Origin: a virus
Taxonomy: Duplodnaviria; Heunggongvirae; Uroviricota; Caudoviricetes
Virus record (IMG/VR): IMGVR_UViG_2529292734_000016
Length of the DNA: 28,326 nt
Strand: one strand, 5' to 3'
The notes beneath the pieces were generated by a model. That model had not been told where the DNA came from. It saw only the letters and a program-made list of their open reading frames with translations, and searched no databases. Shown piece after piece: positions 1 through 8,700 of the stretch (within the stretch, counting starts at the first letter, position 1; every line of letters starts with the position of its first letter). The translations under genes and the position numbers were made by a program.

Positions 1-990
1 GTGAGAGCACTACTGACCCCTGAAATTGCCCCGCGTATGGGGATCGTATTGTTCAGGCCAGGTTCAGAGCTGATGCCCCTGTTTATGCAGGGGCGTGTCC
101 TGCTGGAGCCTGAGCCAGAACGTTATTCATCTTTCGCCAGTGGTGCCGTTCCGGCGGCATCACAACCGCTGGCGGATGATCCTGCCGTTCGGGCCGTGTT
201 CCGCAATGAGGCAGTGATCCGTCGTGCTGGTGGCGTGGAATGTCTTGAAAGCTGGTTACTTCGTGAAAAAGGCTGCCAGTGGCCTCATTCCGACTGGCAC
301 AGCGAGAACATGACCACAATGCGACACGCTCCGGGCGCAATCCGTCTGTGCTGGCACTGCGATAACCAGCTGCGCGATCAGTTCACGGAACGGCTGGAAT
401 CAATGGCAACGGATAACTGTGCCCGCTGGGTGTTGTCTGTAGTCCGTCGGGATCTCGGTTTTGATGATAACCATGCCGTGACAATGCCGGAACTGTGCTG
501 GTGGCTGATTCGTAATGACCTGGCGGATGCCTTACCTGAAAGCGCAGCCCGTAAGGCGCTGAGATTACCGAAACCTGTTGTGCCGTCTGTCACCCGGGAA
601 AGTGACCTTGTGCCTTCGGTTCCTGCCACCAGCATCATCCAGGATAAAGCGAAAAAGGTGCTGGCGCTGAAAGTGGATCCGGAGTCGCCGGAGTCTTTTA
701 TGTTACGCCCAAAACGCCGCCGCTGGGTTAATGAAAAGTACACGCGCTGGGTTAAGACACAGCCGTGTGCATGTTGTGGAAAGCCTGCTGATGATCCCCA
801 CCACCTGATAGGCCACGGTCAGGGTGGAATGGGTACAAAAGCGCATGACCTCTTTGTGTTGCCTTTGTGCAGAAAGCATCACGACGAGCTGCATGCGGAT
901 ACCGTGGCATTTGAAGAGAAGTATGGCTCTCAGCTGGAGCTGATATTTCGTTTTATCGATCGTGCGCTGGCAATTGGCGTATTGGCGTAA
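1..990 (+). CDS. DUF968-like (YdfU-like) nin-region protein, possibly truncated at the window edge
   Basis: C-terminal Cys/His cluster (CACCGKP...HHLIGHG...KAHD...LPLCRKHHDELH) typical of DUF968 proteins found upstream of Q in lambdoid prophages. ORF runs to position 1 and starts on GTG. Confidence 0.5.
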   Translation: MRALLTPEIAPRMGIVLFRPGSELMPLFMQGRVLLEPEPERYSSFASGAVPAASQPLADDPAVRAVFRNEAVIRRAGGVECLESWLLREKGCQWPHSDWHSENMTTMRHAPGAIRLCWHCDNQLRDQFTERLESMATDNCARWVLSVVRRDLGFDDNHAVTMPELCWWLIRNDLADALPESAARKALRLPKPVVPSVTRESDLVPSVPATSIIQDKAKKVLALKVDPESPESFMLRPKRRRWVNEKYTRWVKTQPCACCGKPADDPHHLIGHGQGGMGTKAHDLFVLPLCRKHHDELHADTVAFEEKYGSQLELIFRFIDRALAIGVLA

Positions 991-1003
991 GTGGAGAACG
1001 AGC

Positions 1004-1756
1004 ATGAACCTTGAAGCCTTACCAAAATATTACTCCCCAAAATCTCCAAAATTGAGCGATGACGCACCGGCGACAGGCTCAGGTGGTTTAACGATTACGG
1101 ATGTGATGGCTGCGCAGGGGATGGTGCAGTCGAAAGCACCGCTTGGGTTTGCCTTATTCCTGGCAAAAGTTGGTGTTCAGGATCCTCAATTTGCGATTGA
1201 AGGTCTGCTCAATTACGCGATGGCACTGGATAACCCGACATTGAACAAATTGAGTGAAGAAAGTCGGTTACAGATCATCCCTTACCTTGTGAATTTTGCC
1301 TTTGCTGATTATTCCAGGTCTGCGGCAAGTAAGGCTCGCTGTGAGCATTGTGCTGGTACTGGATTTCATAATGTATTGCGCGAAGTGGTGAAACACTCCA
1401 GAAGCGGGGAATCTGTTATCAAGGAAGAGTGGGTGAAGGAACTATGTCAGCATTGTCATGGTAAGGGAGAAGTCAGCACAGCGTGCAGAGGGTGTAAGGG
1501 TAAAGGTATTGTCCTGGATGAAAAAAGGACCCGGCTTCATGGCACACCTGTTTATAAGATTTGTGGGCGTTGCAATGGAAACCGGTTTAGCCGTTTACCA
1601 ACCACACTGGCGCGGCATCATGTCCAGAAGCTGGTACCAGACCTGACAGATTATCAGTGGTACAAAGGATATGCAGATGTCATTGATAAACTGGTGACAA
1701 AGTGCTGGCAGGAAGAAGCATATGCTGAGGCGCAATTAAGAAAAGTGACGAGATAA
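1004..1756 (+). CDS. Late-gene antitermination protein Q family
   Basis: Start moved to the in-frame ATG at 1004 (MNLEALPKYYSPK), preceded by GGAGAA. Product has repeated CxxC zinc-finger-like motifs (CEHCAGTG, CQHCHGKG, CRGCKGKG, CGRCNG) and sits immediately upstream of the lysis cassette. Confidence 0.65.
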   Translation: MNLEALPKYYSPKSPKLSDDAPATGSGGLTITDVMAAQGMVQSKAPLGFALFLAKVGVQDPQFAIEGLLNYAMALDNPTLNKLSEESRLQIIPYLVNFAFADYSRSAASKARCEHCAGTGFHNVLREVVKHSRSGESVIKEEWVKELCQHCHGKGEVSTACRGCKGKGIVLDEKRTRLHGTPVYKICGRCNGNRFSRLPTTLARHHVQKLVPDLTDYQWYKGYADVIDKLVTKCWQEEAYAEAQLRKVTR

Positions 1757-1787
1757 ATGATTTTCGCCGAAGATAGCGACATGATGC

Positions 1788-1816
1788 TTGCATTTTTCAA
1801 AAAATCTGGTTAGGAT
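1788..1816 (+). promoter_or_regulatory. Candidate late promoter (pR'-like): -35 TTGCAT, 17-bp spacer, -10 TAGGAT, overlapping palindrome TTAGGATTTTCCTAA
   Basis: Hexamers read directly at 1788-1793 and 1811-1816, just downstream of the Q stop codon. Confidence 0.35.
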
Positions 1817-1866
1817 TTTCCTAACGATGGGCTTTGTATGTCTGCCGTTAACGAAATCATAACAAA

Positions 1867-1894
1867 CCTCGCTTCGGCGGGGTTTTTGCTTTTC
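1867..1894 (+). terminator. Intrinsic terminator (tR'-like) between Q and the first late gene
   Basis: CCTCGC-TTCG-GCGGGG hairpin (6-bp stem with one G-U pair, UUCG tetraloop) followed by TTTTTGCTTTT. Confidence 0.5.
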
Positions 1895-1906
1895 TGGAGG
1901 TCAATA

Positions 1907-2164
1907 ATGCAGGGCGAAAAGCAGCAGCCATATTTTTTTAACCCTGGTATGACTGTTGAACAGCTTGAAGACTGGCTGGAGCAGCAAAAGCTGCATCTAA
2001 GCCGCTATAACCGTCTGGTAAAAGAAAAAGCAGAGCTTGAAGAACGGCTCAGTGATATTTCTGTGGAAATTGAACGAATGTCTGCTGGTGGTTTTAACGG
2101 AAAGTTGAGTTTCCCTTGGGAGTCAAGTTCGCTTCTGAGAAATCATCAACAGGGTAGTGTTTGA
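1907..2164 (+). CDS. Hypothetical small protein, first gene after the tR'-like terminator
   Basis: In-frame ATG at 1907 with GGAGG 7 nt upstream. The annotated upstream start at 1838 would place the terminator hairpin inside the coding sequence. Confidence 0.45.
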   Translation: MQGEKQQPYFFNPGMTVEQLEDWLEQQKLHLSRYNRLVKEKAELEERLSDISVEIERMSAGGFNGKLSFPWESSSLLRNHQQGSV

Positions 2165-2243
2165 CTGAAATAATAAACAGACTGTCATTAAGATCCCTTC
2201 CCCTCATATCTGAGAGGACCAACAGCAATTAAGAGGGGGCTAA

Positions 2244-2630
2244 ATGTCCGATCCGATTTCCGGTACTGGGCTGGCTGGTGGTGCCCTGACGGGTGCCAGT
2301 GTTTATGGACTGCTGACCGGAACTGATTACGGCGTTGTATTTGGCGCATTTGCAGGGGCTGTATTCTACATAGCAACAGCAGCAGATCTGAGTGCATCGC
2401 GCCGACTGGCATATTTTATCGTGTCATATATTGCCGGGATTCTTTGCTCTGGGTTGGTTGGCTCCAAGCTGGCGAACTTGACCGGATACAGTGATAAACC
2501 TCTGGATGCTATTGGTGCCGTAATCGTCTCTGCTTTAGCCGTTAAAATCCTGACGTTCCTGAATAATCAGGATATCGGCTCGCTGGTGGCGCTCATAACG
2601 CGCCGGGGAGGTTCAGGTGGAGCTAAATGA
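2244..2630 (+). CDS. Putative holin or antiholin-like membrane protein
   Basis: Strongly hydrophobic, Gly/Ala-rich 128-aa product with several predicted membrane segments, preceded by GAGGGGG and positioned at the head of the lysis cassette. Confidence 0.45.
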   Translation: MSDPISGTGLAGGALTGASVYGLLTGTDYGVVFGAFAGAVFYIATAADLSASRRLAYFIVSYIAGILCSGLVGSKLANLTGYSDKPLDAIGAVIVSALAVKILTFLNNQDIGSLVALITRRGGSGGAK

Positions 2631-2898
2631 CCCGACAGCAACTATAAATGCGCTGTTATGTGCTTGTGTTGTTATTACTCTGATGTTTTATCGTCGTGGT
2701 GATTCGCGGCATCGTCCTTGGGTTTCACGTTTAGCCTGGCTGATTACTGTTACATACAGTGCTGTTCCGTTGGCCTATCTCTGTGGGATTTATCCTCATT
2801 CCTCATGGCCCATTATCGTGGCGAACACTATTTTTCTTTCCGTGCTGGTGGCCGTCAGAGGCAACGTTGCACGTCTGGTTGATCATCTGAGGCACTAA
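2617..2898 (+). CDS. Putative holin
   Basis: 93-aa protein with 2-3 hydrophobic segments and a charged C-terminus, directly upstream of the endolysin with overlapping stop/start. Confidence 0.5.
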   Translation: MELNDPTATINALLCACVVITLMFYRRGDSRHRPWVSRLAWLITVTYSAVPLAYLCGIYPHSSWPIIVANTIFLSVLVAVRGNVARLVDHLRH

Positions 2899-3512
2899 TG
2901 AACCAACAATTATTTCAAAAGGCGGCTGGTATTAGCGCCGGGCTGGCTGCGCGCTGGTTTCCGCACATTGATGCGGCGATGAAGGAATTCGGCATTACAG
3001 CACCAGCGGATCAGGCAATGTTTATCGCTCAGGTAGGCCATGAGTCGATGGGGTTTAGCGCCGTAGTTGAAAATTTTAACTACACACCATCTGCGCTGGT
3101 GGCGACGTTCGGAAAGAGGATCACACAGCAGCAGGCTGATGCCCTTGGCAGAACATCCGGACATGCAGCTCGTCAGGATGCTATTGCCAATCTGGTGTAT
3201 AGCAACAGACTGGGTAACAAAGCACCAGGTGATGGCTGGAAATATCGTGGTAGAGGATTAATTCAAATCACTGGCCTCCATAATTATCGCATCTGTGGCG
3301 CGGCGCTGAAGTTAGATCTGGTGACTTCACCTGAACAACTGGAACAGGAACTACAGGCTGCGCGCTCAGCTGCATGGTTCTACACATCTAAAGGCTGCAT
3401 GGTCTACGGTGCCGATATTAATCGTGTTACGCGCATCATTAACGGCGGTATGAACGGTATTGAGGATCGTAAGGTTCGATACAACAAGGCGCGGGCGGCG
3501 CTGCTGATATGA
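2898..3512 (+). CDS. Endolysin, glycoside hydrolase family 19 (chitinase-like lysozyme)
   Basis: Motifs FIAQVGHES, YRGRGLIQITG and INGGMNG are characteristic of GH19-type phage endolysins; located between holin and Rz. Confidence 0.8.
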   Translation: MNQQLFQKAAGISAGLAARWFPHIDAAMKEFGITAPADQAMFIAQVGHESMGFSAVVENFNYTPSALVATFGKRITQQQADALGRTSGHAARQDAIANLVYSNRLGNKAPGDGWKYRGRGLIQITGLHNYRICGAALKLDLVTSPEQLEQELQAARSAAWFYTSKGCMVYGADINRVTRIINGGMNGIEDRKVRYNKARAALLI

Positions 3513-3970
3513 AGATGAGTTATTGGGCGCTCATTTTAACGTTTATTGCTTGTATTGCTGGTGGTCTTGTCTGGTCAGCTAATCATTACCACAATAAAGC
3601 CATTGAATACAAAAAACAGCGCGACGAAAACGCTATGGCATTAGATTCGGCTATGGCGACGATCTCTGATATGCAGAAGCGTCAACGTGACGTAGCAGAA
3701 CTCGATGCCAGATATACAAAGGAGCTTGCTGATGCTAACGCGACTATCGAAAGTCTCCGTGCTGATGTTTCTGCTGGTCGTAAGCGCCTGCAAGTCGCCG
3801 CCACCTGTGCAAAGTCAACGACCGGAGCCAGCGGCATGGGCGATGGAGAAAGCCCAGGACTTACAACAGATGCTGAACTCAATTATTACCGTCTCCGAAG
3901 TGGAATCGACAGGATAACCGCGCAGGTTAACTACCTGCAGGAGTACATCAGGACGCAATGCCTGAAATAA
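3509..3970 (+). CDS. Rz: i-spanin (Rz)
   Basis: N-terminal transmembrane segment (YWALILTFIACIAGGLVW), coiled-coil-like periplasmic domain, and an embedded +1-frame lipoprotein gene. Confidence 0.75.
   Translation: MKMSYWALILTFIACIAGGLVWSANHYHNKAIEYKKQRDENAMALDSAMATISDMQKRQRDVAELDARYTKELADANATIESLRADVSAGRKRLQVAATCAKSTTGASGMGDGESPGLTTDAELNYYRLRSGIDRITAQVNYLQEYIRTQCLK
3732..3917 (+). CDS. Rz1: o-spanin (Rz1), fully embedded in Rz in another frame
   Basis: ATG at 3732 with AAAGGAG 7 nt upstream; lipoprotein signal with lipobox VSAC and a proline-rich mature region (KSPPPVQSQRPEPAAW). Confidence 0.65.
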   Translation: MLTRLSKVSVLMFLLVVSACKSPPPVQSQRPEPAAWAMEKAQDLQQMLNSIITVSEVESTG

Positions 3971-4002
3971 TTTTTTTTGCAAATCACAAAGTCCATTTAA
4001 TG

Positions 4003-4026
4003 AGCCTCGCGATGCGGGGCTTTTTG
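4003..4026 (+). terminator. Intrinsic terminator after the lysis cassette (first of two)
   Basis: AGCCTCGC-GAT-GCGGGGCT hairpin (8-bp stem with one G-U pair) followed by TTTTT. Confidence 0.5.
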
Positions 4027-4032
4027 CAATAA

Positions 4033-4057
4033 ATGCGTACCGCAACGCATGTTTTTT
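4033..4057 (+). terminator. Intrinsic terminator after the lysis cassette (second of two)
   Basis: ATGCGT-ACCGCA-ACGCAT hairpin followed by GTTTTTT. Confidence 0.5.
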
Positions 4058-4172
4058 ACACCGAACCTGCCCCTTTGGAATGGGCCTTTGAGGATACCAG
4101 TTAGTGCTGGCGAGCCTCGGTGGGCTGGTTTCCTGTGCGGCAAAGGTTCATTTCAAAGAGTAGGTACACGCT

Positions 4173-4670
4173 ATGAAATCATTAACCCTCTTCAATCAAC
4201 CAATTCGTATCGGTGAAGATGGCATGATCTGCCTCACTGATATGTGGAAAGCCAGTGGTAAAAGTGAATCTGAATCTCCGTACCACTACCTGCGAAACAA
4301 GCAGACCAAAGAGTTCTTAGCTGAGCTGGAGAAAAACCACGAATCTGTGGTTTTTACTGAGCGCGGTGTACACGGTGGAACATATGGCGGGAAGTTTGTT
4401 GCTTACGATTATGCGGCTTGGTTAAACCCCGGGTTCAAGTACGCGGCCTATAAAGTCCTGGATGACTACTTCACCGGAGAACTTCAGCATCGCAACAGCT
4501 TAAGTGCGCAGCTCAACATGAAATGTCATGAGTTTGACCAGAAGAAAGACATGGCGAGCTTCTGCGGACAAGGGCTGGCGGCATGGCGCTATACGAAGCC
4601 AGTGTTGGTCGCTGAGATTAACTCCCTGGCTAACCAGCTGCAGATAACGATCCCCGGGCTTCCGGGATGA
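4173..4670 (+). CDS. KilA-N domain protein
   Basis: N-terminal region (FNQPIRIGEDGMICLTDMWKASGK...YAAWLNP) resembles KilA-N/Bro-N DNA-binding domains of phage antirepressor-like proteins. Confidence 0.6.
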   Translation: MKSLTLFNQPIRIGEDGMICLTDMWKASGKSESESPYHYLRNKQTKEFLAELEKNHESVVFTERGVHGGTYGGKFVAYDYAAWLNPGFKYAAYKVLDDYFTGELQHRNSLSAQLNMKCHEFDQKKDMASFCGQGLAAWRYTKPVLVAEINSLANQLQITIPGLPG

Positions 4671-5086
4671 GTGATCGTGTCATTGAATGCGCCTCCAGAG
4701 CGGGGCACGACTTCTCAGAGTTCATGAAAGGCGAGAAGGGCATGATGGAAGCATTGGCCTCGGTGGATGAGTTTGGCGAGCAGCTGCGCCTCAACGGCTG
4801 TGTCAATCATCACTTTGTTAGCTACATGATGCGGAACTCGATCATGCAGGCATTCATGGACATGGCAAAAGCCGAGAGGAAAGAAGAGCGCCGGCGTAAG
4901 CGAGCGGAAGCAAAAGCGGACCAGCAGCGTACTGAAGAACATGCCGCAGCAACTGAAGCGGTTGCAGAACGCCGGGTAGAAACAACGAAAGAGGCCAGCA
5001 ATGTACAGCAGAGTGTTAACCATATGCTTGGCGACGATGTTGATCGTGAGCTGCGCAACAACTGGACCCGCCCCGGTAGTCGTTGA
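4667..5086 (+). CDS. Hypothetical protein, translationally coupled to the KilA-N gene
   Basis: ATGA stop/start overlap at 4667-4670; charged Arg/Lys/Glu-rich central segment; no recognisable family. Confidence 0.45.
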   Translation: MSDRVIECASRAGHDFSEFMKGEKGMMEALASVDEFGEQLRLNGCVNHHFVSYMMRNSIMQAFMDMAKAERKEERRRKRAEAKADQQRTEEHAAATEAVAERRVETTKEASNVQQSVNHMLGDDVDRELRNNWTRPGSR

Positions 5087-5231
5087 TACCGCGTGCGATT
5101 GGGTTAAGCCTATCTATCTTACTGACCACGATATTTCCGCTATGGATAAACAGATGAAGCGCGACATCCTGACGCATAACAAAACATGGCAGTCGAACTG
5201 TTTGAAGGGAGAAACTGAAATGAAGCAGTAA
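5001..5231 (+). CDS. Putative small lipoprotein
   Basis: Signal peptide with lipobox-like LIVSC; GAAAGAGG 6 nt upstream of the ATG; overlaps the 3' end of the preceding gene in another frame. Confidence 0.45.
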   Translation: MYSRVLTICLATMLIVSCATTGPAPVVVDTACDWVKPIYLTDHDISAMDKQMKRDILTHNKTWQSNCLKGETEMKQ

Positions 5232-5512
5232 AGCGGACAGACCGCCCTTACAAGCCGCAGTCATGATGCTACCCCGAGTCTCAATGAGAGCCAGATGCAG
5301 GTCCAAACTGCAATACGCGCTGGTGAGGGTTAACGAAGAAAAAGGCGTACCGGTACTCCAGAGCGATCGCCAGTCGCTCACCGGTTAGAGGTGAGGGATT
5401 CATGAGATACCCCTGACTACAGACTCAAGGGCATGAGCGCGGCCACTGCGAGAGTGTGGTTTATAACCGCTAAAAAATTTATACTCCATGGGCATTGAGC
5501 ATGGAGGGTTGA

Positions 5513-5920
5513 ATGAAACTAGATATCGATTATTTAAAGTCGTTCTTAGCTTTATTTTTAGAATCTGAAAATCCATTTGTTTCGACAGATGAGTTGGCTA
5601 AAGCCGGTTACGATATTTCAGATGCTGTTGGATATTTTCACTACACCCAGCTAATTGAAAAAGGATTCGTGAGTACCTTGGATCTCAGGACGGGCAACCC
5701 AAAAGAGTTGGGATTAGTATTTTCTACAAATAGCATCACAAGCTGGTCTACTTACATCAGGCTAACTTCAAGCGGATATGATTTTGCATTGTCATTAAGT
5801 AAGCCGGATGTTTTTGAAAGATTGAAAGAGTTGAGCAATGAACCCATCGGGGTTTTGAAGGATGTTGGTGTTGAATTGCTTAAGTCTTATGCCAAGAAGA
5901 AGCTTGGTTTATCTGATTAG
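5513..5920 (+). CDS. Hypothetical protein in an AT-rich single-gene cassette
   Basis: 135-aa ORF in a visibly AT-rich block with candidate -10 TATACT at 5480-5485, GGAGGG RBS and a downstream intrinsic terminator. Confidence 0.55.
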   Translation: MKLDIDYLKSFLALFLESENPFVSTDELAKAGYDISDAVGYFHYTQLIEKGFVSTLDLRTGNPKELGLVFSTNSITSWSTYIRLTSSGYDFALSLSKPDVFERLKELSNEPIGVLKDVGVELLKSYAKKKLGLSD

Positions 5921-5947
5921 TATTACTTTCAAATAAAATGAAGTAGG

Positions 5948-5980
5948 AAGCCACAGGCATGTGCCGGTGGCTTTTTTTTA
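5948..5980 (+). terminator. Intrinsic terminator after the AT-rich cassette
   Basis: AAGCCAC ... GTGGCTT stem followed by an 8-T run. Confidence 0.55.
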
Positions 5981-5991
5981 TTGGAGTAAAT

Positions 5992-6342
5992 ATGCCACCC
6001 CGGACACCTAAAGCTTGCCGTGTTCGCGGCTGCCGCTCTACAACAACAGACCCATCAGGTTACTGCGAGTCCCACAAAGGCGAAGGCTGGAAATCCTACA
6101 AATCGGGACAATCCCGGCATCAGCGCGGCTACGGTTCGAAGTGGGATGTTATCCGTGAACGAGTGCTGAAGCGTGACAAAGGCCTGTGTCAGTTATGTCT
6201 GCATGCCGGTGTGGTGCGTGAGGCGAAAACTGTTGACCACATCATCCCTAAAGCGCATGGCGGCACTGATGCCGATATTAATCTGCAGAGCCTGTGCTGG
6301 CCGTGTCATAAGGCGAAGACGGCCCGTGAACGACTTAAGTGA
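5992..6342 (+). CDS. HNH endonuclease (phage packaging-associated)
   Basis: ATG at 5992 with GGAG 5 nt upstream; HNH motif (CQLCLHAG...VDHIIPKAHGGTD...NLQSLCWPCHKAK); positioned immediately upstream of TerS as in HK97-like phages. Confidence 0.8.
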   Translation: MPPRTPKACRVRGCRSTTTDPSGYCESHKGEGWKSYKSGQSRHQRGYGSKWDVIRERVLKRDKGLCQLCLHAGVVREAKTVDHIIPKAHGGTDADINLQSLCWPCHKAKTARERLK

Positions 6343-6467
6343 TAATAATTCTCAACTTTCTGAGGGGAGGGGCGGGTCAAATCTCTATGACCTGACGTCT
6401 TCCGGACTGCCCGCCCCATCGTTTTTTTATACCCGCGAAAAATGAAATTTAACCAGGAGTGCCGCAT

Positions 6468-6953
6468 ATGGCTGGAACGGCGGGGCGTTCCGGGCGTCGC
6501 CCCAAGCCAACGGCGCGCAAGGCGCTGGCCGGAAACCCCGGCAAGCGAGCCCTGAATAAAGATGAACCTGTTTTTACGCCCATCAAAGGTGTTGAGCCAC
6601 CGGAGTGGTTCGCTGAAGAAGATCTCCCTCTCGCCACGATCATGTGGCAACTGACAACCAAAGAACTCTGCGGTCAGGGCCTGCTGTGCGTGACTGACCT
6701 GGCGGTACTTGAGCGGTGGTGTGTGGCCTATGAGTTCTGGCGACGTGCCGTGAAAAATATTGCCAGACAGGGTAACACCATCACCGGTGCAATGGGTGGC
6801 ATGGTCAAAAATCCGGAGCTGACCGCCAAAAAAGAACAGGAGTCCGAGATGAGCAGCACGGGGGCAATGCTCGGACTCGACCCCAGCAGCCGCCAGCGTC
6901 TGATTGGCCTGGCGGGGAAGAAGAAAGCCACTAACCCGTTTCTGACAATCTGA
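6468..6953 (+). CDS. Terminase small subunit (P27-like family)
   Basis: ATG at 6468 with AGGAG 9 nt upstream; N-terminal GRSGRRPKP motif and position directly before the large terminase. Confidence 0.7.
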
Positions 6954-6966
6954 AAATCATCGAATC

Positions 6967-8700
6967 ATGAGCCGGAAATCTTACCCCAACGTAAATGCTG
7001 CCAATCAGTATGCCCGGGATGTCGTGCGCGGAAAGATTGTGGCCTGCCAGTTTGTGATTCAGGCCTGCCAGCGCCATCTTGATGACCTGATGGCGGAAAA
7101 AAGTAAGTCGTTTCGTTACCGCTTCGACAAGGACCTGGCTGAACGGGCCGCGAAATTTATTCAGCTGTTGCCGCACACCAAGGGGGAGTGGGCATTCAAA
7201 CGGATGCCCATCACGCTGGAGCCGTGGCAGCTCTTTGTGATCTGCTGTGCGTTTGGCTGGGTCAATAAAGGCACCCGGCTGCGCCGCTTCCGAGAGGTGT
7301 ACACCGAAATCCCCCGTAAGAACGGCAAATCAGCAATCTCTGCCGGTGTTGCCCTGTATTGTTTTGCCTGTGATAACGAGTTTGGCGCGGAAGTGTATTC
7401 CGGTGCCACGACAGAGAAACAGGCGTGGGAAGTCTTTCGCCCGGCGCGACTGATGTGTAAACGCACACCCATGCTGACGGAAGCGTTCGGGATTGAGGTT
7501 AACGCCTCAAACATGAACCGTCCGGAGGATGGCGCGCGGTTTGAACCGCTGATCGGCAACCCAGGTGATGGTTCATCACCCCACTGTGCCGTGGTTGATG
7601 AATATCACGAGCATGCCACCGATGCGCTTTATACCACAATGCTTACCGGGATGGGGGCGCGACGTCAGCCACTGATGTGGGCCATCACCACCGCCGGGTA
7701 CAACATTGAGGGGCCGTGCTACGACAAACGGCGGGAAGTCATCGAGATGCTCAACGGCTCGGTGCCTAACGATGAACTGTTCGGGATCATCTATACCGTT
7801 GATGAAGGTGACGACTGGACCGACCCGCAGGTGCTGGAAAAAGCCAATCCAAATATTGGCGTGTCGGTTTATCGCGAATTTTTGTTAAGTCAGCAGCAGC
7901 GTGCGAAAAATAATGCCCGTCTGGCAAACGTCTTTAAAACAAAACACCTCAATATCTGGGTGTCGGCGCGTTCGGCGTATTTCAACCTGGTGAGCTGGCA
8001 GAGCTGCGAGGATAAATCACTGACCCTTGAGCAGTTCGAGGGGCAGCCGTGCATTCTGGCCTTTGACCTGGCGCGTAAGCTGGATATGAACAGCATGGCG
8101 CGACTTTATACCCGCGAGATTGACGGTAAAACGCATTACTACAGTGTGGCCCCGCGTTTCTGGGTACCGTATGACACGGTGTACAGCGTCGAGAAAAATG
8201 AAGATCGCCGGACAGCCGAACGCTTTCAGAAATGGGTGGAAATGGGCGTTCTGACTGTTACCGCTGGTGCGGAGGTGGATTATCGCTACATCCTCGAGGA
8301 GGCCAAAGCGGCGAACAAAATCAGCCCGGTCAGTGAGTCACCCATCGACCCCTTCGGGGCGACCGGGCTGTCGCATGACCTTGCTGATGAAGACCTGAAC
8401 CCCATCACCATCATTCAGAACTACACCAACATGTCCGATCCGATGAAAGAGCTGGAAGCGGCGATTGAATCGGGGCGCTTTCATCATGACGGCAATCCCA
8501 TCATGACCTGGTGTATCGGCAACGTGGTCGGCAAAACCATTCCGGGTAACGATGATGTGGTGAAGCCTGTCAAGGAGCAGGCGGAAAACAAAATCGATGG
8601 TGCGGTTGCACTGATTATGGCGATCGGTCGGGCAATGCTCAAAGAACCCGACGATTTCCTCTCATCTCTTGATCCGGACGATGTTCTCTTAATTCTATGA
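6967..8700 (+). CDS. Terminase large subunit
   Basis: 577-aa protein with ATPase and nuclease regions typical of Terminase_1-type TerL; followed by portal, protease and capsid. Confidence 0.9.

Follow-up and report, generated by a model that had tools for sequence, protein, structure and literature searches.

HK639 and mEp390 are listed as an overlapped two-component spanin family, with the i-spanin family named "HK639, mEP390" and the o-spanin family named "BcepNazgul" (Kongari et al., 2018; PMC6139136). According to the established spanin model, the i-spanin requires an inner-membrane anchor, and its C-terminal domain is located in the periplasm (PMC6139136). Spanin activity is a putative assignment for the mEp390/HK639 family, made from gene context and by cataloguing. 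Our sample of the o-spanin family consisted of 80 fetched IMG/VR loci, 77 of them uncut, and four reference loci. The ORF overlapping the o-spanin gene contains a strongly hydrophobic segment in all 77 uncut loci and in the four reference loci (best 17-residue Kyte-Doolittle window 2.24-3.02). The overlap is usually 86 nt, with a minority of loci at 80 nt, and a homologue of the GH19 endolysin of the window analysed here lies upstream in 51 of the 80 loci, ending approximately 10 nt before the i-spanin start in 37. Neither hkbK, hkbL nor a lambda-type Rz was found near the 80 loci.

The second system with which the present locus must be compared is the hkbK-hkbL gene pair of phage HK620, which is also found in PhiR49_1, ECP1, the Stx2 phages 1717 and 2851, and Salmonella P22-like phages. 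The pair occurs without any lipoprotein in approximately 1000 complete E. coli genomes and in many phages. A literature search for hkbK or hkbL found nothing. The mosaicism of lambdoid phages includes "novel joints", where non-homologous or microhomology exchange takes place at module boundaries, as in the HK97, HK022 and HK620 genomes.

The window is a stretch of 28,326 nucleotides from a virus of the Caudoviricetes (IMG/VR record IMGVR_UViG_2529292734_000016). All features with coordinates below are on the plus strand, except for two antisense ORFs (4715-5023 and 5016-5381) that were taken as shadows of the coding strand. A preliminary description of the region between 4173 and 5231 had proposed a single three-gene accessory module, and the layout on which it relied was borne out. 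Three ORFs are present, with 165 aa at 4173-4670, 139 aa at 4667-5086 and 76 aa at 5001-5231. The first two are coupled by an ATGA (4667-4670) that contains both the stop codon of one and the start codon of the other; the third covers the end of the second in another frame over 86 nt (5001-5086) and is preceded by a ribosome-binding site, AAAGAGG, 6 nt upstream of its ATG. The three are not chance ORFs, each product having strong PHROG homologues (E 1e-17 to 1e-64). None of the three proteins had a match in NCBIfam (E <= 0.01), and searching the entire window for Rfam families and tRNAs gave no match.

The first ORF is a homologue of hkbK. Its product carries the KilA-N domain that had been described (residues 9-101, PF04383, E 1.3e-15) and, in addition, an ORF11CD3 domain (residues 109-161, PF10549, E 2.4e-13), and it matches PHROG 129 and 10441. 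The gene shares 94-99% nucleotide identity with HK620 hkbK and with its counterparts in PhiR49_1, ECP1 and Stx phages, and, of 5426 complete E. coli genomes, 1015 carry it. The 165-aa KilA-N and ORF11CD3 protein, the ATGA coupling and the place directly after Rz/Rz1 are all shared with the HK620 pair. This domain architecture belongs to the Bro/antirepressor network (PMC10111431), and the hkbK product is probably a DNA-binding regulator, for which "antirepressor-like" would be a reasonable label at the family level. A PDB sequence search with the protein gave no match, and PADLOC gave a weak, domain-level match to the candidate defence family PDC-S22 (E 1.2e-8).

The second ORF begins as hkbL. 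Residues 1-84 of its product (4667-4918) match positions 1-84 of the 85-position profile of PHROG 875 (E 2.2e-52). However, native hkbL of the HK620 type has about 85 aa (range 83-87) and ends in ...RRRKRAEAKAK*, whereas here the stop codon is gone and 55 foreign residues have been added, giving 139 aa. The added part (4919-5086) corresponds to the periplasmic domain of an mEp390/HK639-type i-spanin, now an anchorless C-terminal tail. PHROG 1026, "Rz-like spanin", matches residues 75-136 (E 3.5e-17), and residues from about 80 to 139 are i-spanin-derived. At the protein level, the tail has 100% identity with the last 62 residues of an intact, anchored 92-aa E. coli i-spanin (P0098), and its region has 83% nucleotide identity to the gp51 region of mEp390. 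On these matches, the 139-aa protein is an hkbL::i-spanin fusion. As the preliminary description had noted, the protein has no membrane anchor: no hydrophobic segment was found, and the best 17-residue Kyte-Doolittle window scores 0.45, the value that also applies to the last 95 residues of the fusion in the window and in siblings with the same joint. The anchor is missing because the recombination has put hkbL in its place. An AF2 model of the hkbL part (the 84 N-terminal residues) is a three-helix bundle (pLDDT 89) with no PDB match by Foldseek at E <= 0.001, and PADLOC gave only noise-level matches with the whole fusion.

The boundary between the two parts can be placed exactly. Identity to the left parental type extends up to 4918 and identity to the right parental type begins at 4903, such that the two share a 16-nt microhomology, AGCGGAAGCAAAAGCG (4903-4918), which encodes (A)EAKA in frame in both parents. 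Megablast matches with 107 phage and 1021 E. coli records end at 4918, and homology to the spanin pairs of mEp390, HK639 and Klebsiella prophages starts at 4903. The left parental type is represented by PhiR49_1, with an 85-aa hkbL and 98.7% identity over 3662-4918, and the right by an E. coli locus (L010) with the order holin-holin-GH19-i-spanin-o-spanin, whose i-spanin is the anchored P0098; over 4903-5092, the window differs from this locus at one synonymous base. The 16-nt match is the longest exact string common to both parental-type regions; in 300 composition-matched controls, the longest such string was 14 nt. As at the known novel joints, identity of approximately 99% falls abruptly to none against one relative, the reverse is seen against another, and a short match is found at the crossover. 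Unlike those joints, the present one lies inside two coding sequences and in frame, with a fusion protein and an orphaned neighbour gene as the result, and both parental types as well as the exact 16-nt crossover can be named.

The third ORF (5001-5231) encodes an intact mEp390/HK639-type o-spanin lipoprotein (PHROG 1275, "Rz-like spanin", E 1.9e-32). Its lipoprotein character, which had been recognized previously, is evident from the signal MYSRVLTICLATMLIVS followed by the cysteine, with a positive n-region, a hydrophobic core and an I-V-S-C lipobox. The protein is 68-90% identical to its 80 IMG/VR relatives. The lipobox Ser-Cys is invariant in 67 distinct family sequences, and Cys18 is kept here, together with the DTACDWV..IY.T motif, Cys67, the conserved AAAGAGG ribosome-binding site and all other invariant columns. 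The remnant resembles the mEp390/HK639 locus in its o-spanin of about 75 aa, with lipobox, motif, conserved cysteines and ribosome-binding site, and also in its i-spanin periplasmic domain (AEAKADQQRTEE...DVDRELR..W.RPG) and 86-nt out-of-frame overlap. Nucleotide identity of the remnant is 83% to mEp390 and 94.6% to L010. It differs in its i-spanin, which is fused to hkbL and has lost the N-terminal 30 or so residues together with the transmembrane anchor that they contain. It also differs in position: the pair does not directly follow the endolysin gene but starts 1.4 kb downstream of its stop, with Rz/Rz1, the two hairpins and hkbK in between. Among the o-spanin loci compared, this joint lineage is the sole exception to a membrane-anchored partner. 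Because that partner has no anchor, the o-spanin is orphaned, and by family membership we consider the 76-aa lipoprotein to be an orphan o-spanin. The preliminary description had dismissed a spanin origin on account of the absent anchor; this dismissal does not survive the matches to PHROG 1275 and PHROG 1026 and a tail that is that of an intact i-spanin. A literature search for spanin remnants found nothing relevant.

Upstream, the window contains a complete lambda-type spanin pair. The i-spanin gene Rz (3509-3970) encodes 153 aa with the N-terminal anchor YWALILTFIACIAGGLVW and matches Pfam PF03245 over residues 30-151 (E 1.8e-38) and PHROG 13 (E 8e-69). The embedded lambda/HK97-type o-spanin gene Rz1 (3705-3917) encodes a lipoprotein with a V-S-A-C lipobox and matches PF06085 (E 2.4e-20) and, over residues 10-70, PHROG 3198 (E 6.5e-29); its start is probably Met10, at 3732. 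The anchor of Rz and the lipobox of Rz1 are both visible in the translations. Blastn block boundaries show that the Rz gene, too, is a hybrid, which resembles SKA5 as far as 3591 and PhiR49_1 from 3662 on. No sequence similarity is detectable between the Rz/Rz1 pair and the remnant downstream; the pair belongs to separate PHROG families and, in contrast to the remnant, is covered by Pfam. The two also differ in architecture: in the lambda type the o-spanin gene is wholly within the i-spanin gene, whereas in the remnant it overlaps the end of the i-spanin gene. The lambda-type pair at 3509-3970 is most likely the spanin pair in use.

After the Rz stop, two terminator-like hairpins, each followed by a U-run, occupy 3998-4057. 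The first (stem at approximately 4002-4022) folds at -14.6 kcal/mol (z -2.36); the second (stem 4033-4050) is weaker, at -6.9 kcal/mol (z -1.37), and is followed by GUUUUUU. The "two tandem terminators" that had been described here are therefore only partly reproduced, with both hairpins and their U-runs present and a simple terminator scan listing 4033-4050 only, but we find the designation plausible. The segment has 98.7% identity to PhiR49_1, by which measure the hairpins are part of the block that came in with hkbK-hkbL.

We believe that the region is very probably a recombination scar that joins two unrelated modules, in which the downstream pair has been crippled and the lambda-type pair does the spanin job. 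The left module would consist of the 3' part of Rz with Rz1, the terminator-like hairpins, hkbK and hkbL, a block that directly follows the lysis genes of HK620, PhiR49_1, ECP1 and many Stx phages, and the right module would be the 3' two-thirds of an mEp390/HK639-type overlapped two-component spanin locus. A crossover within the 16-nt identity (4903-4918, AEAKA in both genes) would have deleted the last codons and stop of hkbL, as well as the first 30 or so codons of the i-spanin gene, including the whole transmembrane anchor. The proposed outcome is an in-frame 139-aa fusion followed by an untouched o-spanin gene with its own ribosome-binding site, and the whole stretch is probably transcribed within the Q-antiterminated late operon. 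Because it has neither a signal peptide nor an anchor, the fusion is expected to be cytoplasmic. The lipoprotein should be exported, lipidated and, with Ala at +2, sorted to the outer membrane; an o-spanin without an inner-membrane partner would therefore form no spanin bridge, and disruption of the outer membrane should rely on the lambda-type Rz/Rz1. The hkbK-hkbL pair presumably retains its own accessory function, the hkbL core (residues 1 to about 73) being intact. Such a scar of phage mosaicism is of an ordinary kind, but it is unusually clean.

The same joint was found in the NCBI drafts GCA_002467725.1, GCA_005889645.1 and GCA_000818965.1, in ENA metagenomes and in Logan assemblies. It occurs behind two different lysis cassettes and has thus outlasted at least one exchange of the upstream cassette. 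Over 4790-5250, the 12 joint-bearing loci compared do not differ at any position, and this invariance marks the joint as a single recent event. The exact 139-aa sequence was found in three contigs, and 84 index blocks of the collection contain a near-identical protein (P0001). A joint-spanning query gave no covering match in 5426 complete E. coli genomes, and the exact 35-nt joint pattern gave no match in the GTDB species-representative genomes. The joint is rare and is known from drafts and metagenomes only. In every copy examined, the remnant is undecayed, with a tail of functional-type i-spanin sequence and the invariant o-spanin residues kept. With zero divergence among the 12 loci, this state fits a recent origin and would also be compatible with upkeep by selection. 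In the genome GCA_047715025.1, a nonsense change (E74*) removes the entire spanin-derived tail and leaves the hkbL core, so that the tail may not be needed. One 2.3-kb metagenome contig (L099, sample ERZ27240554) carries another in-frame hkbL fusion of independent origin, in which the periplasmic tail comes from a lambda-type Rz and an intact mEp390-type pair lies alongside. Both in-frame hkbL fusions, here and in L099, adjoin an intact spanin of the opposite type.

The original proposal, a dedicated accessory module in which an antirepressor-like KilA-N protein and its charged partner are accompanied by a lipoprotein for superinfection exclusion at the cell surface, could draw on the Bro/antirepressor architecture of the hkbK product and on its weak PDC-S22 match. 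The outer-membrane lipoproteins Cor and Llp are known exclusion factors and would provide a precedent. Searches of the 76-aa lipoprotein against exclusion and defence families in Pfam (E <= 0.1), NCBIfam (E <= 0.01) and PADLOC (E <= 0.01) gave no match, however, whereas its membership in the o-spanin family is clear, its homologues overlap an anchored i-spanin by 80-86 nt in all 77 uncut IMG/VR loci, and the endolysin of the window has its homologue upstream in most of the fetched loci. Moreover, hkbK-hkbL occurs without a lipoprotein in approximately 1000 complete E. coli genomes and in many phages, and the three genes are found together in this one joint lineage only. The exclusion idea is therefore unsupported, the single module is replaced by hkbK-hkbL joined to a truncated overlapped spanin locus, and we regard a dedicated module as very unlikely. 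That the fusion and the lipoprotein might still disrupt the outer membrane, such that the phage would have two working spanin systems, is suggested by the full-length, undecayed periplasmic domain and o-spanin and by the intact overlap and ribosome-binding site. Such a system is highly improbable in view of the membrane requirement of i-spanins (PMC6139136): the fusion lacks both a signal peptide and a hydrophobic segment (its score is 0.45, whereas the 81 family loci all reach 2.24 or more), and its N-terminal 84 residues are modelled as a soluble bundle. We give almost no credence to a joint created by assembly or sequencing. Short repeats are able to mis-join contigs, and the exact protein is present in only three of them, but the joint recurs in independent NCBI isolate drafts, ENA metagenomes and Logan assemblies, on contigs of up to 206 kb, and P0001 is spread over its 84 index blocks. 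In addition, an identity of 16 nt is far below the k-mer sizes of assemblers.

The recombination scar could also have been retained for a new function. The orphan o-spanin, the fusion or both would then be kept for an effect on other phages or on hkbL function; a co-resident or superinfecting phage of the mEp390 type might have its i-spanin paired with or titrated by the orphan, or the fusion might alter hkbL. The presence of the joint in at least two phage backgrounds and dozens of samples without decay is consistent with this explanation, as is the mirror-image fusion in L099. However, zero divergence implies a recent origin, which accounts for the undecayed state without selection, the joint is absent from the complete E. 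coli genomes and GTDB representatives searched, one copy carries the tail-removing nonsense mutation, and the second fusion is a single short contig. Retention for a new function is thus unlikely. The more specific idea that the capture of i-spanin periplasmic domains by hkbL is not accidental, with the remnant kept for conflict or cooperation between phages, or with hkbL itself related to lysis, is quite unlikely, although the second independent fusion could be a hint of more than accident. Pairing with or titration of the i-spanin of a co-resident mEp390-type prophage might alter whose lysis succeeds, and if the remnant were functional, it would be the first case of an o-spanin acting without a partner encoded in cis.

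Read as a recombination scar, the region offers a clean mosaic joint in which the parental types are known and the 16-nt crossover is placed exactly; since its formation, the joint has come to lie behind two different lysis cassettes. It may also be viewed as a spanin replacement in progress, with the mEp390-type pair being displaced by the lambda-type pair. For annotation, the case indicates that a plausible "accessory operon" may be a fusion of two unrelated modules, and we propose that the lipoprotein be annotated as an orphan o-spanin and the 139-aa protein as an hkbL::i-spanin fusion. RefSeq-style pipelines label all these genes as hypothetical, and the o-spanin gene is often missed or given the wrong start.

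The cluster at 4173-5231 is a recombination scar, in which a known accessory gene pair is fused to a truncated spanin of a known family and an orphan o-spanin is left behind, and it does not represent a new kind of system. The preliminary description was accurate for the sequence and partly wrong in its interpretation. All three described genes are present on the plus strand and encode a KilA-N protein of 165 aa (4173-4670), a 139-aa protein (4667-5086) and a 76-aa lipoprotein (5001-5231). Domain searches recovered KilA-N (E 1.3e-15) and ORF11CD3 (E 2.4e-13) in the first product, and the proposed coupling to the second gene has its ATGA overlap. The lipoprotein gene shares 86 nt, out of frame, with the 139-aa gene and has an AAAGAGG motif 6 nt 5′ of its start codon, which agrees with the good ribosome-binding site assigned to it; its product has a canonical lipoprotein signal ending in I-V-S-C. 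No hydrophobic segment was detected in the 139-aa protein, in line with the lack of an N-terminal membrane anchor noted before. Two tandem terminators had also been proposed; two hairpins with U-runs 3′ of the stem indeed follow the Rz stop codon, one at approximately 4002-4022 (-14.6 kcal/mol, z -2.4) and a weaker one at 4033-4050 (-6.9 kcal/mol, z -1.4), but only the latter is picked up by a simple terminator scan. It is plausible that both are terminators.

The left part of the 139-aa protein (residues 1-84) matches the 85-position profile of PHROG 875 end to end (E 2.2e-52). Its DNA has matches in 107 phage and 1021 E. coli records, and all these matches stop at 4918. The HK620 counterparts are hkbK (KilA-N, 165 aa) and hkbL (85 aa), which are ATGA-coupled and lie directly 3′ of Rz; PhiR49_1 shares this layout, with 98.7% identity to 3662-4918. 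The hkbL core is predicted to form a three-helix bundle (pLDDT 89), and a structural search with this model gave no informative match. Residues 60-90 of the KilA-N protein weakly match the PADLOC candidate defence family PDC-S22 (E 1.2e-8), which probably reflects shared KilA-N domain similarity.

The right part has a different source. Residues 75-136 match positions 31-84 of PHROG 1026 (E 3.5e-17) and the lipoprotein matches PHROG 1275 (E 1.9e-32); both families are annotated as 'Rz-like spanin', which contradicts the earlier rejection of a spanin origin. Starting at 4903, the DNA aligns with spanin pairs from mEp390 (83%), from HK639 and from prophages of E. coli and, in several cases, Klebsiella. 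HK639 and mEp390 are catalogued as having an overlapped two-component spanin, with the i-spanin family '(HK639, mEP390)' and the o-spanin family 'BcepNazgul' (Kongari et al., 2018; PMC6139136). In mEp390 and E. coli C3728, two holins and a GH19 endolysin are followed by an i-spanin of 91 or 89 aa with an N-terminal anchor (MGLETIIGIAALVMAAIAGAFGIG...) and then by an o-spanin of 75-77 aa that overlaps its end. An intact relative from the protein search, a 92-aa E. coli i-spanin (P0098, MSIVEIIIWVIGAICVAAAGGFGVGHIRGTSKAEAKADQQ...), is identical to the chimera tail in its C-terminal 62 residues, and its locus is identical to 4903-5092 except for one synonymous base. The origins of both segments are established.

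Neither Pfam nor NCBIfam has a model covering the i-spanin or o-spanin of this type. Annotations of the o-spanin gene are often wrong; gene callers predict products of 64-71 aa or miss it altogether (loci L012 and L014-L018), and in RefSeq mEp390 (o-spanin 2599-2826) the start was placed at the internal codon 2674, which yields 50 aa without a signal peptide. In GCA_000818965.1, the 139-aa gene is uncalled despite DNA identical to the window.

The parents change within a 16-nt string, AGCGGAAGCAAAAGCG (4903-4918), that hkbL and the i-spanin share in the same codon phase. The native hkbL 3′ end reads CGT AAG CGA GCG GAA GCA AAA GCG AAG TAG (RKRAEAKAK*), and the i-spanin counterpart reads AGC AAA GCG GAA GCA AAA GCG GAC CAG (SKAEAKADQ). 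This string is the longest exact one common to both parental-type 1.6-kb regions, compared with 9-14 nt in 300 composition-matched controls, and the crossover point is likewise established. Crossover here deleted the hkbL stop codon and the first ~30 i-spanin codons, that is, the entire anchor, and the reading frame runs open into the periplasmic-domain codons.

The missing anchor is unusual for this family. We compared 80 IMG/VR loci encoding relatives of the lipoprotein, 77 of them uncut by a contig end, and four reference loci. In 77/77 uncut loci and in the four references, the frame into which the o-spanin start falls contains a strongly hydrophobic segment of ~20 residues, with Kyte-Doolittle 17-residue maxima of 2.24-3.02 versus 0.45 in the window and its same-joint siblings. 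The overlap between the two genes is 86 nt (80 nt in a minority of loci), and upstream in 51/80 loci is a gene homologous to the GH19 endolysin of the window, ending ~10 nt before the i-spanin start in 37 of these 51. No hkbK, hkbL or lambda-type Rz was found within 2.5 kb in the 80 loci. Anchor loss is established in the window, as is the integrity of its o-spanin, which retains every invariant family feature (lipobox Ser-Cys, DTACDWV, IY.T and the distal Cys), together with the ribosome-binding site usual for the family.

According to the established spanin model, contact between the inner-membrane-anchored i-spanin and the outer-membrane lipoprotein takes place in the periplasm. On this model, the fusion would remain cytoplasmic and the lipoprotein, whose Ala at +2 implies Lol sorting, would be exported to the outer membrane. 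The two products would have no way to meet, so that outer-membrane disruption would depend on Rz/Rz1 at 3509-3970. This lambda-type spanin is established as complete (Rz, PF03245, E 1.8e-38; embedded Rz1, PF06085, E 2.4e-20). A working second spanin is contradicted by the missing anchor. An exclusion lipoprotein or a three-gene module, as the preliminary description tentatively suggested, is contradicted by the family membership of the lipoprotein and by its context. Independent assemblies, as well as long contigs, contradict an assembly artefact at the joint. Retention of the remnant in a new function is an unlikely reading that has circumstantial support only. We consider the scar a clean, well-resolved case of lambdoid mosaicism and spanin replacement that is of use for annotation.

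The exact 139-aa protein occurs on three contigs. For a version differing by two residues (P0001), the collection has 84 index blocks, with NCBI E. coli drafts and gut metagenomes among them; of the best 120 protein clusters, both halves are present in P0001 and its truncated copy only. The joint was found in 0 of 5426 complete E. coli genomes and in none of the GTDB species representatives, and the exact o-spanin sequence was found in joint contexts only. Because 4790-5250 is fully identical across the 12 joint-bearing loci compared, one recent event is indicated. In loci L011-L018, the module (96.5-97% identical to 4100-8639) follows another lysis cassette, one resembling that of HK620 (S-type holin, 158-aa lysozyme and 155-aa Rz); therefore, the joint has moved between phage backgrounds. 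In GCA_047715025.1, a G>T change at the position homologous to 4886 creates the nonsense mutation E74*, so that the basic tail and everything derived from the spanin are lost from the chimera, with the o-spanin frame downstream remaining intact; this single data point is consistent with a dispensable chimera tail. Locus L104 shows a 1-nt gap in the part homologous to 4173-5231, probably in hkbK, which is called there as a shortened 107-aa product.

A mirror image of the window occurs on a single 2.3-kb metagenome contig (L099; ENA ERZ27240554 k141_15079; 17-437 and 886-1799). An intact, anchored mEp390-type i-spanin (91 aa) and o-spanin (76 aa) are followed by hkbK and by hkbL residues 1-79 fused in frame with the last ~60 aa of a lambda-type Rz, joined at an 8-nt identity, CGTAAGCG, encoding RKR. 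Moreover, the hkbL relatives P0003, P0037, P0066 and P0115 diverge after approximately residue 70-82 into unrelated C-terminal extensions (e.g., ...RSRHYKAYLRVGLIMKPEF...). This suggests that recombination has used the hkbL 3′ end as a module boundary repeatedly.

The window covers the late region of a lambdoid prophage of E. coli. A DUF968 protein, a Q-type antiterminator, two holins and the GH19 endolysin (2898-3512) precede Rz, and the cluster is followed by a PHROG-585 gene, an HNH endonuclease, the small and large terminase, portal, protease, capsid and tail genes. The window shares its backbone with Escherichia phage SKA5 (98.4% identical over 1-3591 and 95.7% over 5992-8630), which carries none of the three cluster genes. 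The Rz gene, too, is a recombinant. Up to 3591, where the anchor is encoded, it resembles SKA5 (98.4% identity), and from 3662 onward, including the embedded Rz1, it resembles PhiR49_1 (98.7% identity); because the periplasmic part and Rz1 share one source, they should be a cognate pair. The 135-aa PHROG-585 gene (5513-5920; sub-threshold DUF2513 match) accompanies the module in all joint-bearing loci and is missing at this position in SKA5, mEp390 and the P0098 locus. The 280 nt between the o-spanin and this gene (5232-5512) have no convincing open reading frame and no Rfam match; they are ~85% conserved in other E. coli prophages (H95-H100, with nothing annotated there) and 75% in C3728.
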